Source of the DNA: a virus
Taxonomy: Duplodnaviria > Heunggongvirae > Uroviricota > Caudoviricetes
Length of the DNA: 34,080 nt
Virus record (IMG/VR): IMGVR_UViG_648276671_000020
Location: 1 to 34,080 of that record
Direction: 5' to 3' (one strand)
The notes under the pieces: generated by a model
What the model saw: the letters and a program-made list of their open reading frames with translations, nothing else
Told to the model about the DNA's origin: nothing
The model's database searches: none
Made by a program: the position numbers and the translations under genes
In this document: positions 20,156 to 26,245 of the stretch, in pieces
Layout of the letters: the number at the start of each line of letters is the position of its first letter
Numbering within the stretch: position 1 is the stretch's first letter

Positions 20156-22366
20156 ATGAGCACAAAATTCAGAACCGTTATCACCACTGCCGGTGCAGCA
20201 AAGCTGGCAGCGGCAACCGCACCGGGAGGGCGGAAGGTCAACATTACCACGATGGCCGTCGGGGATGGCGGGGGTAAATTGCCTGTCCCGGATGCCGGAC
20301 AGACCGGGCTTATCCATGAAGTCTGGCGACATGCGCTGAACAAAATCAGCCAGGACAAACGAAACAGTAATTATATTATCGCAGAGCTGGTTATTCCGCC
20401 GGAGGTGGGCGGTTTCTGGATGCGTGAGCTTGGCCTGTACGATGATGCGGGAACGTTAATTGCCGTGGCGAACATGGCCGAAAGTTATAAGCCTGCCCTT
20501 GCCGAAGGCTCAGGGCGTTCGCAGACCTGCCGCATGGTCATCATCGTCAGCAGTGTGGCCTCAGTGGAGCTGACTATCGACACCACAACGGTGATGGCAA
20601 CGCAGGATTACGTTGATGACAAGATTGCAGAGCATGAACAGTCACGACGTCACCCGGACGCCTCGCTGACCGCAAAAGGTTTTACTCAGTTAAGCAGTGC
20701 GACCAACAGTACGTCTGAAACGCTCGCCGCAACGCCGAAAGCGGTAAAGGCCGCATATGACCTTGCTAACGGGAAATATACTGCGCAGGATGCCACTACG
20801 GCGCGAAAAGGCCTTGTTCAGCTCAGTAGCGCCACCAACAGCGATTCTGAAACGCTTGCGGCAACGCCAAAGGCGGTAAAGGCCGCATATGACCTTGCTA
20901 ACGGGAAATACACTGCACAGGACGCCACCACCGCGCGAAAAGGCCTTGTTCAGCTCAGTAGCGCCACCAACAGCGACTCTGAAACGCTTGCGGCAACACC
21001 AAAGGCGGTTAAGACAGCGTATGACCTTGCTAACGGGAAATACACTGCACAGGATGCCACCACAGCGCGAAAAGGTCTTGTCCAGCTAAGTAGTGCCATC
21101 AACAGCGATTCTGAAACGCTGGCCGCAACACCAAAAGCGGTGAAGTCTGCCTATGACAACGCTGAAAAACGTCTTCAGAAAGATCAGAACGGTGCGGATA
21201 TTCCGGGAAAGGATACCTTCACGAAAAATATCGGTGCCTGTCGTGCTTATAGCGGTGCTTTGAGCACTGAAGCCGGAAACTGGACAACCGCGCAGTTTAT
21301 TGACTGGCTAGAGTCTCAGGGAGCCTTTAATCATCCCTACTGGATGTGCAAGTGTTCCTGGTCATACGGTAATAACAAAATTATTACCGATACTGACTGT
21401 GGGACGATTCATCTTGCAGGTTGCGTGATTGAGGTTATGGGCGTTAAAGCAGCAATGACCATTCGTGTGACCACTCCGAGTACATCAAGCAGTGGTGGTA
21501 CCACCAGTGCGCAATTCACGTATATCAATCACGGAGCTGATTATGCGCCGGGCTGGCGACGCGACTACAATACGAAAAATAAGCAACCGGCTTTTGCATT
21601 AGGGAAAACAGGAAATACGGTTGCAAATAATAAAGCAGTAGGATGGAACTGGGACAGTGGTGCTTATTGTGCACAGGATGGCGGAGCATCAAAAATGGTG
21701 CTGCATTTTTACACGGGTGAGGGAAGTTGTCCGGCAATGCAGTTTCTTGTGGATTATAAAAACAGGGGGATTTTTTACAGGTCGGCACGTGATGGGTATG
21801 GATTTGAGGCTGACTGGTCAGAGTTTTATACCACATCACGAAAGCCAACACCTGCGGATATTCTTGCTCTGGCATTATCAGGCGGAAGCATGTCAGGCAG
21901 CATAAAATTTATCAATGATGCCTTCCTGATTTGGGAAAGAAACACTGACTGGGCGAAAATTGGATTTAAAAATGATTCAGATGCTGATTCTGACTCATTC
22001 ATGTGGTTTGAAACTGGTGATAATGGCAATGAATATTTTAAATGGCGCATCAGGTCTGGCAGCACAACAAAAGATCTGATGACGCTTAAGTCTGATGCAC
22101 TACGAGTTACCGGGCAGGTGATACCATCAAATTTCAGCAATTTTGACTCCCGCTATGTCAGGGATCTCCGGCTTGGTGGTGCCGCCACATACAAACCTGC
22201 GAACAATGGCATGACATGGACACATCAGGCACCGTCCGGGTGTGTATATACCGGCATTATTGTTCAGGATACCGGCTCAAACTCTGCCGATAACATTGGT
22301 GGCGTATATTACAGACCGGTGCAGAAATACATTAACGGGACATGGTACAACGTGGCGCAGGTATAA
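20156..22366 (+). CDS. H: Tail fiber protein
   Basis: 736 aa. N-terminal region conserved P2-H-like, internal 44-aa tandem repeats, AT-richer C-terminal domain (CGTIHLAGC..., Trp/Tyr-rich). Confidence 0.9.
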   Translation: MSTKFRTVITTAGAAKLAAATAPGGRKVNITTMAVGDGGGKLPVPDAGQTGLIHEVWRHALNKISQDKRNSNYIIAELVIPPEVGGFWMRELGLYDDAGTLIAVANMAESYKPALAEGSGRSQTCRMVIIVSSVASVELTIDTTTVMATQDYVDDKIAEHEQSRRHPDASLTAKGFTQLSSATNSTSETLAATPKAVKAAYDLANGKYTAQDATTARKGLVQLSSATNSDSETLAATPKAVKAAYDLANGKYTAQDATTARKGLVQLSSATNSDSETLAATPKAVKTAYDLANGKYTAQDATTARKGLVQLSSAINSDSETLAATPKAVKSAYDNAEKRLQKDQNGADIPGKDTFTKNIGACRAYSGALSTEAGNWTTAQFIDWLESQGAFNHPYWMCKCSWSYGNNKIITDTDCGTIHLAGCVIEVMGVKAAMTIRVTTPSTSSSGGTTSAQFTYINHGADYAPGWRRDYNTKNKQPAFALGKTGNTVANNKAVGWNWDSGAYCAQDGGASKMVLHFYTGEGSCPAMQFLVDYKNRGIFYRSARDGYGFEADWSEFYTTSRKPTPADILALALSGGSMSGSIKFINDAFLIWERNTDWAKIGFKNDSDADSDSFMWFETGDNGNEYFKWRIRSGSTTKDLMTLKSDALRVTGQVIPSNFSNFDSRYVRDLRLGGAATYKPANNGMTWTHQAPSGCVYTGIIVQDTGSNSADNIGGVYYRPVQKYINGTWYNVAQV
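20676..21165 (+). repeat. Tandem 132-bp in-frame coding repeats (about 3.7 copies) within H
   Basis: The unit ARKGLVQLSSATNSDSETLAATPKAVKAAYDLANGKYTAQDATT is repeated with few substitutions; unit boundaries at about 20804, 20936 and 21068. Confidence 0.85.
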
Positions 22367-22369
22367 TTT

Positions 22370-22897
22370 ATGCAGCATTTGATAAATATAACGGCAGGTA
22401 ATCCAAAAACGGTTGAACAATATCAATTGACAAAGGACTTTGATGTTGTCTGGTTTTTTTCAGAAGATGGTAAGAACTGGTACGAAGAACAAAAGTATTT
22501 TGCTGATGACACGATAAAAATAGCGTACGACAAAGATAATATCATCCGCTATGTGGAAAAGGATGTGACAGCTATCAGACCAGATGGATTAAGTGTGGTT
22601 GAAGTGGCGGATATTACTGCTAACCGACGGGCGGATATTTCAGGGAACTGGATGTTTAAGGACGGCAAAGTGATTAAACGCATTTATACGGCAGAGGAAT
22701 TGCAGCAGCAGGCAGAAAACCGGAAAGCCAGACTTCTTGCAGATGCTGAATCCGTAATTTTGCCGCTGGAACGCGCTGTCAGGCTGAATATGGCGACGGA
22801 TGAGGAGCGCACACGACTGGAAGCATGGGAACTCTACAGCGTTCTGGTCAGTCGTGTGGATCCTGCAAATCCCGAATGGCCGGAAATGCCACAATAA
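22370..22897 (+). CDS. G: Tail fiber assembly chaperone
   Basis: 175 aa immediately after H, the size and position of P2 gpG. Confidence 0.85.
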
Positions 22898-22931: not shown

Positions 22932-22973
22932 TGGCACAGAGTAAAGCCTGATCTGACAGTCCGCTCTGTGCCA
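22932..22973. repeat. 10-bp perfect inverted repeat (TGGCACAGAG ... CTCTGTGCCA) with 22-nt loop
   Basis: Seen directly, about 35 bp after the G stop. No T-run, so not a canonical intrinsic terminator. Confidence 0.4.
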
Positions 22974-23272
22974 AGATCGGACCTTAGGCTTCAGTAATTT
23001 GGTTAGCACAACCCCTTTGATAAACATACAGCTACAGTATTGCTTTTATAAGGAGCGTAGTTTCAATAGGACACCCCAAACGTTAGTCGGGAAAAGCCGA
23101 CTGAAAAAAAACTTGTGTGGACAAGTAGTGTCCATTTAATGCCATTTTTAGATTAAAATGTGCCATTTTGAGGGTATTCTTAAACGTGCATAACGTTCTG
23201 ATTTATCATACACAGAGCCTTATCATTTGAAACCATTCCGATGTACATCAAACAATGATTACAAGAGAAATT

Positions 23273-24790
23273 ATGACACCGCCAACCAAAATTGATACAT
23301 CAAGTCTACTTACCATATTGGGCGTTATTGCTGCTGTATGGGCCCTTATTACGCCAAACGCTCGACTACGTTTAAGGTTCTGCCTAGCGTGGTGGGATTG
23401 GGTAATTGTTGGGTTTGCATTCTTACTAAGCAATTATTTGGTGTTTGCACCGGCTTTAAAATCACTAGACTTATATTTTAGCTTTGGCCCCTGGAAATGG
23501 GGATTAGATAGTTCAAGTGCCGTATACCTGATATCACTCGCAGTTGCTATTTACATTTTATTTCGCTTAAAAAACCCTAAACTCTCAATTGGAAGAACAG
23601 GGATATTTCTAGAGTTAGTGGAAAATTTGCACCTTACTAAACGATACGACGATCTGGCACAATTGTTGGCACCTCAACTAGAAAAATTAATATCAATAAT
23701 TGATAGACCTGTGAAGAATCGACTTTGTGATAAGATAGCTAACAATCTCCGCATCTCTAATCGCGAGACAGCTGCTGAACATGCACATGAAGCATTGTTA
23801 AATATTGTCTCATCACCTGAACTTACCAATCACTTTGCACTTGCGCACCCATCCCTCTGCCTTGAGTTAATCAAGATCGAGCCAATAGTTCGTTCTGACT
23901 TTACTTCTAATTTTATCAGTGCATTACTTGGTTCACCTAACAGTCGTCTATATGTTGAGCTTAAAAATAATCTTAACGTTAGTCGAGGACATCGTTTATT
24001 GATTCCAAAAAACAACCGTATATTACATTTTTTCTTTTCCAATGCTAAGTTTGCAGCTGATTTAGCAATATACCGTGATATCGGTGACTATCTCTACTGG
24101 AGGTTAGATGAAGATGAAAAAATTATTGCTGCACTTAATAAGTCTTTAGGTTCCTATTACGATGCTTCAAAATATAAATGTCCTATTTACTCAGGTGTCA
24201 CGCTGTTTGAAATTATGGTTCATGAAGGTATTCACCAGGGTCTTCAGGATCATTTATGGTTGCATTACTATTCATATTTTGCAAGGAAAATTATAAAGAA
24301 TATGAATAGGCAATCGGATGAATATAGTGGTGAATGGGAAACACCTTTTCACTTCCTTCTCTGTCATTTATTTAGCGTCGCTACAGATTGGGCAGAACAA
24401 TGCGAATGGATAGATGAAAAGGAGATTCCTCAAGAAAATAAAGAAATAGATAATTTCGATCTTCATTATATTTCAAAAGAGGCTACCAAATTACTTGGTG
24501 CTATGCTGCAGTTGGTTATGCCTAATAAAAAACTCACCTTGAAATCTAAAAAACATATTCTTGATATAGTTGTATCTTGTTATATTAGATTGAAAAGGAA
24601 TAAAAAATTAAAAGACGTCGCTGACTCATTATTAATTTTCACCACTAGAGGCGAAGGTAATTCAGCACCGCCGCATTATCGTAGAGAACTTCTAGAAATA
24701 TTCAATACCCTTGATGATTATCGATTAAGAACTGATGCCCCGGAATTCCGAGCAGCTATAGAGTCTGCTATTCAAGCAAGGCCGAATTAG
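23273..24790 (+). CDS. Membrane-anchored protein, function unknown (3 N-terminal TM helices plus large soluble domain)
   Basis: Track ORF 23255..24790; ATG at 23273 is an alternative start. Hydrophobic segments near residues 15-33, 43-66 and 85-103, then about 400 aa I cannot place in any family. AT-rich; sits at the P2 Z/fun cargo locus. Confidence 0.65.
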   Translation: MTPPTKIDTSSLLTILGVIAAVWALITPNARLRLRFCLAWWDWVIVGFAFLLSNYLVFAPALKSLDLYFSFGPWKWGLDSSSAVYLISLAVAIYILFRLKNPKLSIGRTGIFLELVENLHLTKRYDDLAQLLAPQLEKLISIIDRPVKNRLCDKIANNLRISNRETAAEHAHEALLNIVSSPELTNHFALAHPSLCLELIKIEPIVRSDFTSNFISALLGSPNSRLYVELKNNLNVSRGHRLLIPKNNRILHFFFSNAKFAADLAIYRDIGDYLYWRLDEDEKIIAALNKSLGSYYDASKYKCPIYSGVTLFEIMVHEGIHQGLQDHLWLHYYSYFARKIIKNMNRQSDEYSGEWETPFHFLLCHLFSVATDWAEQCEWIDEKEIPQENKEIDNFDLHYISKEATKLLGAMLQLVMPNKKLTLKSKKHILDIVVSCYIRLKRNKKLKDVADSLLIFTTRGEGNSAPPHYRRELLEIFNTLDDYRLRTDAPEFRAAIESAIQARPN

Positions 24791-25064
24791 GTAAATCAAC
24801 CACCTGCATAGCGGGTGGTTTAGACATAGACCTCTAAGCATGCCTGAAAGCAGAGGTACCTCTAAGTTTCGATGTCTAGGTGTTGATCGGCTGTAATCTG
24901 GTAACCAGGTCAAGCTTAAAATTTTCTCAACATAAACAAGTAGTATTTCAAATATTGAACCATACTGACTCCCCCACTTTTTATAAGATTATGGAAATTT
25001 TTTGTACCAGTAAGTTCGAAAATTAGTGTTGTTCTCATCAGTCGTTATGAATAATTTTGAACTT

Positions 25065-25128
25065 CCGCTCCTCGCTCACAGCGGACCCTCAACTCAGCCA
25101 GCAATGTCCGCTGCTTGCCAGGAGCGGA
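25065..25128. other. Nested stem-loop between convergent cargo genes
   Basis: Outer arms TCCGCTCC/GGAGCGGA and inner arms CAGCGGAC/GTCCGCTG, each 8 bp, separated by 7-nt internal loops with a 20-nt apical loop. GC-rich inside an AT-rich island. Confidence 0.4.
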
Positions 25129-25165
25129 CGTAGTTTAATCTCTACTATGTTAATAAGTAATGATA

Positions 25166-25918
25166 TTAAATAAACTCATCATCAAGAAAGCCTGTTGATA
25201 AAAAGTTCTGAATGTGAAGATAAAAAGAATAACGTGTATCTTCATTTTTTTTCTTCGATGTGTTGAGTTCCGGCTTGAGATTGTAAATAAGATGAGACTC
25301 TATAAAGTCAAGTAATTCTATAGCTAATGATGTCGGACTAATCCAATCCAGTGAAATATAGTCTTTTCCATCATAAAACCATGGGGTGGCTCTATATATC
25401 CTCTTTTTCATATTATTATATTTGGGATCTAGCAACTTTAAGGCAGCCGAGTGACCGCCAATAAACCTTTTGGAGTTAACGGTTTTTCCGACATAAACAA
25501 TGTGTTCATTGGTATCATCCATATCAGAGCATGATATTAAATAGATTGGTAATGAGGGTTTGGGAGGAATGCCGATTTTTTTTTCGATTATCACCCTCTC
25601 CTTTTCATGAATAAAAATGGGAAGCTTTCCATTAAATTCACTCTTCACATTCCCCAAGAATGAATCTGTATTTTTCCTAGCTTCATGCAGTCCGACCCAG
25701 TTAAGACTATTGACCTGATGGAGAGGACAGCATTCCTGTATTGATAACCAAGCCTCCCAATCACTTGATGGATTATCACTACAGTTTTGGCCCGAAAATC
25801 TGTGTGAAAGGAATTTTCTCCCCTCGAACCAGGCTTGCAACGGAATATATATATCTGAAGTGTTCTGCTCGACTTCAATTAATGGACTATTAGTATCCAA
25901 ATTTATGCCTCCTTTCAT
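25166..25918 (-). CDS. Hypothetical protein with a C-terminal GIY-YIG-like nuclease motif
   Basis: 250 aa. PIYLISCSDMDDTNEHIVYVGKTVNSKRF resembles the GIY-X(10-15)-YVGK..KR core of GIY-YIG domains (compare UvrC VIYVGKAKDLKKR as I recall it). GGAGG-type RBS before the ATG; AT-rich. Confidence 0.55.
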   Translation of the reverse strand: MKGGINLDTNSPLIEVEQNTSDIYIPLQAWFEGRKFLSHRFSGQNCSDNPSSDWEAWLSIQECCPLHQVNSLNWVGLHEARKNTDSFLGNVKSEFNGKLPIFIHEKERVIIEKKIGIPPKPSLPIYLISCSDMDDTNEHIVYVGKTVNSKRFIGGHSAALKLLDPKYNNMKKRIYRATPWFYDGKDYISLDWISPTSLAIELLDFIESHLIYNLKPELNTSKKKNEDTRYSFYLHIQNFLSTGFLDDEFI

Positions 25919-26218
25919 TAAGTATTTGCATAAAAATATCTAAAAATAAGAAATTCTTTAATTAAGATTATAAGTTAAATATAAGTACCAATGAAGCTTT
26001 GAATGATTTCGCATCAATAAATTAATTCTAACACAATACCATATAATAACGAAAAATGTCACTGCTTGGTCGTTGAGGATATGACATTGCAATTAAAGAG
26101 AAAACCTTAACACACTATCTATAACGTCCGTTTCTCGCTCAAAGCAGACTGTCAGATTTGATAGCATTTGGGCTATGTAAATTGTCAGGCGGAAAATGAG
26201 TGAGTACAAATCAGGACA

Positions 26219-26245
26219 GGCGGGCGAATTGCCCGCCTTTTCTTT
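26219..26245 (+). terminator. Intrinsic terminator upstream of the FI late promoter region
   Basis: Hairpin GGCGGGC-GAATT-GCCCGCC followed by TTTTCTTT on the plus strand. Confidence 0.45.

Follow-up and report, generated by a model that had tools for sequence, protein, structure and literature searches.

The minus strand of a P2-like prophage, at positions 25,166 to 25,918 of the window (the whole stretch of viral DNA analysed here, 34,080 nucleotides long), very probably encodes a GIY-YIG nuclease with an intact predicted active site, in which a family-specific module precedes the nuclease core. Read from its sequence, the gene is most likely an uncharacterised single-gene defence system that would cut the DNA of invading phages or mobile elements, a reading that we put at about an even chance. 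A fuller version is tentative and carries clearly less confidence: an undescribed immune family that combines a core like that of T4 endonuclease II (EndoII) with a novel N-terminal sensor, possibly a remote TacA-type derivative, and that shuttles as a hairpin-bounded cassette of promoter plus gene. The fold is known and single-gene GIY-YIG defence already has precedent in CMoRE; none of the resources searched describes the nuclease family, its reversed order of domains or its N-terminal module.

The gene and its GIY-YIG core

In the ORF list the frame at 25166-25918 (-) encodes 250 aa counted from an ATG, and it is a real gene under purifying selection rather than a chance ORF, given a dN/dS of 0.11 against a Proteus copy with 87% identity, 83 homologues at E<=1e-3 and invariant motif residues. 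The ATG at 25918 has no ribosome-binding site upstream when the sequence is read, a strong Shine-Dalgarno sequence precedes a TTG at 25900, and two other starts agree with this TTG: RefSeq WP_001471804.1 is the identical gene, annotated from the TTG with 244 aa, and the Proteus orthologue begins at the same codon. The coding sequence is therefore likely 25166-25900, with the true start probably 6 codons inside the ATG frame. Residue numbers follow the 250-aa (ATG) numbering throughout. The features of the gene are as follows.

25166..25900 (-), likely coding sequence, 244 aa from TTG (Shine-Dalgarno geometry, RefSeq start, Proteus orthologue start)
25908..25915 (-), Shine-Dalgarno AAA GGA GG, AAAGGAGG, 7 nt upstream of the TTG start and within the ATG-start version of the ORF
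25553..25900 (-), family-specific N-terminal module, residues 7-122 (model: extended 55-65, helices 66-71, 77-94 and 105-114)
25253..25552 (-), GIY-YIG nuclease core, residues 123-222 (PIY, VYVGKT, Arg151, His156, Lys172, Glu207, Asn219)
25169..25252 (-), C-terminal tail, residues 223-250, with a conserved HIQNF strand (Ile236, Asn238; alignment, and model strand 234-238)
26033..26062 (-), sigma-70-like promoter candidate (GTGACA, 18-nt spacer, TG-TATTGT; consensus scan only)

The original prediction placed a GIY-YIG-like core in the C-terminal half, and this was borne out by profile alignment, by Pfam matches across the family and by residue conservation. The strings on which it relied are all present, with PIYLIS at residues 124-129, IVYVGKTVNSKRF at 140-152, IELLDFIE at 200-207 and LKPELN at 214-219. 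The check that it proposed, a search with profile PF01541, bore it out in part: at E<0.01 the profile matched 4 of 24 relatives, but the window protein alone scored 14.9 bits (E 0.033) against a cut-off of 22.6. A second GIY-YIG model, PF20815, gave a similar result, with 13.1 bits (E 0.094; cut-off 22.4) for the window protein, which by itself thus falls below the curated gathering thresholds of both models, and matches at E<0.01 for 9 of the 24 relatives. The two matches of the window protein cover complementary halves of the domain. The best relatives reached E values of 4.1e-5 and 2.4e-4 against the two models, and two relatives carry a precomputed PF20815 match.

The best structural and profile match to the core was T4 EndoII (DenA, PDB 2wsh). 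HHalign aligned the family with EndoII over 90 columns (67% probability, pairwise E 5e-5), pairing VYVGKT with VYIGKT, Glu207 with the catalytic Glu118 of EndoII (the residue mutated in 2wsh) and Asn219 with Asn130, so that the downstream Glu and Asn candidates of the original prediction find counterparts in a known enzyme. The key residues of the core include Tyr126 in PIY and Tyr142, Gly144 and Thr146 in VYVGKT. Among relatives drawn from 50%-identity clusters, Tyr142, Gly144 and Arg151 are each present in 109/109, Tyr126 in 107/109, His156 and Glu207 in 108/109 and Asn219 in 105/109. An AlphaFold model of the window protein (pLDDT 88.5, pTM 0.85) has the alpha/beta fold of GIY-YIG domains, with PIY and VYVG on strands 125-132 and 139-145. 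The two tyrosines lie 16 aa apart in the window protein and 14 apart in most relatives; the classical GIY-YIG spacing, 10-11, is shorter.

Four independent lines agree on the GIY-YIG assignment, including the Pfam matches of the homologues, the EndoII profile alignment and the residue conservation, which is why we regard it as highly probable. From these data we infer nuclease activity and DNA as the substrate, and the gene product would be a soluble, catalytically competent endonuclease whose core is closest to EndoII. The two proteins nevertheless differ in build and setting. EndoII has 136 aa and, unlike the window protein, neither an N-terminal module of about 120 aa nor an HIQNF tail; as the enzyme of a lytic phage it breaks down host DNA that lacks modification, whereas the window gene is prophage cargo with predicted expression of its own.

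The N-terminal module and known GIY-YIG systems

The original prediction had left the N-terminal half without assignment, and it stays so: a profile of this part searched against PDB and Pfam returned chance-level matches, giving no fold or family, and the module has no likeness to a known modification reader or sensor. It closes with a conserved LG-PP-P linker, and it was only the full-length model that showed its strand 55-65 docked on the core. Evolution is faster in the module than in the core: mean pairwise identity among relatives is 46% in the module and 62% in the core, and dN/dS against the Proteus copy is 0.15 in the N-terminal half and 0.04 in the C-terminal half. The full-length profile matched the TacA antitoxin (DUF1778) weakly, at E 0.07, and HHalign of the module against a small TacA alignment (DUF1778, PF08681) gave 52% probability over 70 colinear columns, too low a score to establish homology.

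One metagenomic relative, P0211 (231 aa), keeps the YVGKT...RF-x-GH...E...N part of the nuclease core, but where the N-terminal module usually stands it carries leucine-rich repeats (LRR_8, E 1.7e-6). This single sequence, perhaps truncated, hints at the swapping of sensors onto the nuclease core; the idea carries little weight because it comes from one protein that lacks the first strand.

Stand-alone GIY-YIG proteins have been described in defence before. CMoRE (PD-T4-3, PDB 9u75) is a published precedent for such a protein as a type IV restriction enzyme, and it resembles the window protein in being a single-gene E. coli defence of about 250 aa with a GIY-YIG nuclease and one extra domain; its order is the opposite, with an N-terminal GIY(x)Y-YIG domain and a C-terminal modified-cytosine sensor (PMC12923530). 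PD-Lambda-1 and Uzume are likewise single-gene defence systems reported to contain a GIY-YIG domain (bioRxiv 10.1101/2024.10.26.620412), which is their likeness to the window protein. The latter is not PD-T4-3/CMoRE, PD-Lambda-1 or Uzume, because it matched no model of PADLOC-DB v2.0.0 (5027 models) at E<=10. When 24 relatives were compared with PADLOC, no model was matched either, the best hit being two members at E 0.0019 to the candidate PDC-S14. PADLOC, NCBIfam and PHROGs supplied no functional name (PHROGs: phrog_16890, function unknown), and a literature search by protein accession found no mention of the protein. The GIY-YIG type II restriction enzymes Eco29kI and Hpy188I differ in having a cognate methyltransferase, of which there is none in the window cassette or island.

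The Z-region island and its hairpin-bounded cassettes

The window takes in a whole P2-like prophage, a host cation-efflux gene lies at its right end, and the landmarks are as follows.

1-1011 (-), integrase
3456-5774, replication gene A
20156-22366 (+), tail fibre gene H
22370-22897, tail-fibre assembly gene G (Caudo_TAP)
26342-27532, sheath gene FI

A 3.1-kb insert, rich in AT (GC 33-40%, against 50-59% in the flanks), separates G from FI; it is the P2 Z-region, the site of Z/fun in P2 itself. P2 uses the same G-FI slot with the same inverted repeats; its slot differs in holding one 299-aa gene on the opposite strand, and the Z/fun protein is unrelated to the window nuclease. Z/fun excludes phage T5. 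In GenBank records of other P2-like phages (AJ512676, AJ512682) the cargo at this place varies and has an annotated inverted repeat on its left and another on its right. A 2026 survey of 1511 P2 elements located defence systems in hotspots within P2 tail genes (PMC13586616); the better-studied P2 hotspot lies between genes A and Q (PMC9122126).

The 250-aa gene and a 511-aa gene are the only ones in the island, and no methyltransferase domain is encoded by them. Rfam and tandem-repeat scans of the island gave no match, and hence there was no sign of an RNA antitoxin. A 24-nt palindrome, GTCYGCT-N10-NCGGAC, occurs in exactly four copies in the 34-kb window (22959, 25063, 25106 and 26126), and these bracket each cargo gene separately.

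22959..22982 (unstranded), left island boundary motif, inside the left inverted repeat of the P2 Z-region
23255..24790 (+), 511-aa gene, a separate cassette and not an obligate partner of the nuclease gene
25063..25086 (unstranded), boundary motif closing the 511-aa cassette (motif scans, RNA fold)
25106..25129 (unstranded), A-type boundary motif GTCCGCT-N10-AGCGGAC, 37 nt past the nuclease stop codon (motif scans, RNA fold)
25123..26049 (-), mobile unit common to a Proteus lambdoid prophage (84% nucleotide identity, blastn against L010 and L025)
26126..26149 (unstranded), B-type boundary motif at the other end of the nuclease cassette, inside the right inverted repeat of the P2 Z-region

As the original prediction had it, the nuclease gene is convergent with the 511-aa gene; the two lie 375 bp apart, and in this gap the motifs at 25063-25086 and 25106-25129 fold as RNA into a double hairpin of about 70 nt. 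The unit common to Proteus spans the upstream region, the nuclease gene and the start of the downstream hairpin only; the small-ORF list showed no second conserved ORF in this shared cassette, and the Proteus copy has an A-type motif 36 nt past its own stop codon. The -10 element of the candidate promoter falls within the shared block. The nuclease gene runs against the flanking late operons, and this orientation, together with a promoter-like site of its own, is as expected for a lysogenic-conversion gene. The gene is a single-gene 'moron' cassette occupying the Z/fun site, and with its candidate promoter the lysogen probably expresses it independently of the P2 late operons.

The separate transcription of the two convergent genes, which had been proposed from their orientation, proved to go further: they are independently acquired cassettes and not a two-gene system, since the 511-aa module is found alone from motif to motif and Proteus identity is confined to 26049-25123. 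Of 5426 complete E. coli genomes, 76-81 carry the 511-aa gene and 6 carry the nuclease gene. In non-P2 islands of other E. coli the 511-aa module stands alone among differing neighbours, with homology running from motif to motif (window 22952-25087), and no 511-aa gene lies near the Proteus-type nuclease copy in viral contig L025.

Three stretches within the first ~110 residues of the 511-aa protein are hydrophobic and probably span the membrane; the protein has no match in Pfam, PADLOC or NCBIfam (PHROGs: phrog_13820, function unknown), and its cassette has matches of about 74% nucleotide identity in Klebsiella phage-plasmids; the gene is a defence or exclusion candidate in its own right. Both genes also occur together, at 98-99% amino-acid identity, in Leclercia tamurae (L033, NZ_JAMHKS010000063.1, 3031-8960), outside a P2 context (no G or FI match within 6 kb) and in an array with at least one additional pair of hairpin motifs, a sign that the two cassettes passed between genera as one block not long ago.

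Related 24-nt hairpins of two types, A (GTCCGCTCTGTGCCAGGAGCGGAC) and B (TTCCGCTCCTCGCTCACAGCGGAC), surround single cargo cassettes in the P2 Z-region, in non-P2 E. coli islands and in Leclercia, Proteus, Serratia and Rouxiella (besides the window, loci L002, L003, L010, L033, L037, L039 and L047-L050). Where two cassettes meet, the junction is a B-A pair, spaced by 16-19 nt, that folds to a hairpin of about 70 nt, reminiscent of an integron attC site. Copies of the double-hairpin junction (window 25055-25135) with 77-83% identity were found in 610-716 of 5426 complete E. coli genomes, at 845 places, all intergenic. In 3 of 4 sampled loci (L047 6614-7216, L048 2342-2944 and L049 1490-2092) a tyrosine recombinase of 200 aa, made up of nothing but the catalytic domain (PF00589), is encoded 1.5-3.5 kb from the junction, and the single-gene cassettes around it include reverse transcriptase and dynamin-family genes. 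The outer motif copies in the window are the inverted repeats annotated in AJ512676 and AJ512682, and the A/B hairpins are probably a rediscovery of the Z-region repeats. These repeats were reportedly first described by Nilsson et al. in 2004. At 26218-26238 (+), between the right boundary of the island and the start of FI, there is also a canonical intrinsic-terminator-like hairpin with a 9-bp GC-rich stem and a T-run, which in other P2 phages probably terminates transcription of Z/fun and similar cargo on the plus strand.

Relatives and candidate function

Most homologues of the window protein are about 226 aa long and about 50% identical over their full length, with hosts among Pseudomonas, Acinetobacter, Burkholderia, Halodesulfovibrio and Bacillales. 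The family is sparse: an exhaustive profile search of 1.84 billion representative proteins yielded about 250 clusters at E<=1e-3 (109 of them supplied the residue counts given above), a pattern scan found 14 loci in 185,579 species genomes, IMG/VR holds 10 relatives, and tblastn of the nuclease gene against 50,697 phage records gave no match. The gene is absent from almost all P2-like phages. In a sample of 10 contexts, taken without a background control, relatives lay on mobile elements in 7/10 and had known defence genes within 8 kb in 6/10; the neighbourhoods seen include the following.

Proteus lambdoid prophage end, just after the tail fibres: SIR2 and a STAND NTPase adjoin
Acinetobacter Tn7-like cargo: Shedu or DUF3800 adjoins
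Halodesulfovibrio integrative conjugative element: Thoeris adjoins
Virgibacillus: Gabija adjoins
Microbulbifer: an integrase and type I restriction-modification genes adjoin
Peribacillus: Mrr adjoins
Another prophage: relative about 3 kb after the tail-fibre genes

Three of the 10 contexts (Pseudomonas, a betaproteobacterial metagenome-assembled genome and Neptuniibacter) had no defence genes near the relative. Relatives always stand alone, with neighbours that differ at every locus and no conserved partner gene, and no conserved adjacent antitoxin gene was found across the sampled loci or in the window cassette. A TacA/TacT-like pairing with a downstream GNAT acetyltransferase, seen at two loci, was considered and set aside as coincidence, the GNATs being mutually dissimilar and absent elsewhere.

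This genomic context makes more likely the reading as an anti-phage effector that had been offered for the gene from the start. We infer a defence role, and a role for the N-terminal module within it, along these lines: the protein would act as a stand-alone defence by cleaving invading DNA, the module of about 120 aa would pack against the GIY-YIG core, and this variable module would supply discrimination. It might do so by permitting cuts in non-self DNA only, for instance in DNA that carries modifications, as type IV restriction enzymes do, or by holding the nuclease inactive until an infection cue. The hairpin cassettes may shuttle, much as integron cassettes do, among the P2 Z-region, lambdoid prophages and chromosomal islands of Enterobacterales.

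The competing account that we weigh most heavily, at a probability well below that of direct defence, is an abortive-infection or toxin-type nuclease, latent in the lysogen and triggered by infection to degrade host and phage DNA (or RNA), with death or arrest of the cell. EndoII, the nearest relative, cuts ordinary cytosine-containing DNA, so an unregulated copy would be self-toxic, and the cassette carries neither a methyltransferase nor an immunity gene; the fact that strand 55-65 docks in the full-length model alone would suit an autoinhibitory lid, and many systems of P2 and P4 hotspots work by abortive infection (PMC9122126). Set against this, no antitoxin-like partner or small ORF is conserved, and the GNAT genes downstream at two loci are unrelated to each other; sequence cannot tell abortive infection from direct restriction. 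The original prediction had also raised a homing-endonuclease-like gene, and a selfish enzyme that cuts empty sites, for example the boundary palindrome, to spread its own cassette is now improbable. Many cassettes without a nuclease, that of the 511-aa gene and other cargo of the Z-region among them, are flanked by the same motifs, and relatives outside Enterobacterales lack the palindromic motif. I-TevI and the Seg proteins have an N-terminal catalytic domain followed by a linker and C-terminal DNA-binding modules, the reverse of the window protein, in which Pfam found no NUMOD, IENR1 or HTH DNA-binding module; nor is the gene intronic, and the 50,697 phage records do not contain it.

That the nuclease serves the phage itself, breaking down host or competitor DNA in P2 lytic growth for nucleotide salvage or takeover as EndoII does, would fit the match to EndoII and the location of the gene within a phage genome, but it is slightly less probable again: the gene opposes the late operons and is preceded by a promoter-like site of its own, it is dispensable cargo missing from almost all P2-like phages, and relatives reside as well in Tn7-like elements, integrative conjugative elements and chromosomal islands. 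A cellular repair or recombination nuclease (UvrC-, Cho- or Slx1-like) that lies in the prophage by chance is very improbable in view of the rare, patchy spread of the family, the AT-rich cargo composition and, in Pfam, the lack of UvrC- or Slx1-type partner domains. Single-gene defence against invading DNA is thus the reading that we prefer. If it is true, the P2 tail-region hotspot gains a compact nuclease defence of about 0.9 kb including its promoter, and the target of the N-terminal sensor could reveal a new way of discriminating self from non-self DNA, because the module matches nothing known; a new modification- or structure-specific nuclease tool might also result, as CMoRE gave for 5hmC. 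Candidates for single-gene nuclease defence are now numerous, and this nuclease is a moderate-priority lead. The 24-nt hairpin pair offers a sequence handle for finding swappable cargo in enterobacterial prophages and islands.

Elsewhere in the prophage, the other P2 cargo hotspot, from gene A to the portal gene Q, encodes at 6910-8092 (+) a 161-aa Peptidase_M78 (ImmA/IrrE-like) protein and a 209-aa protein without a Pfam match, and may be a second accessory or defence module of the same prophage. The tail fibre gene H (20156-22366, +) contains four tandem copies of a repeat of about 44 aa (TAQDATTARKGLVQLSSATNSDSETLAATPKAVKAAYDLANGKY), and related prophages with the same cargo island carry another fibre variant, 85% identical at the N-terminus and divergent at the tip.
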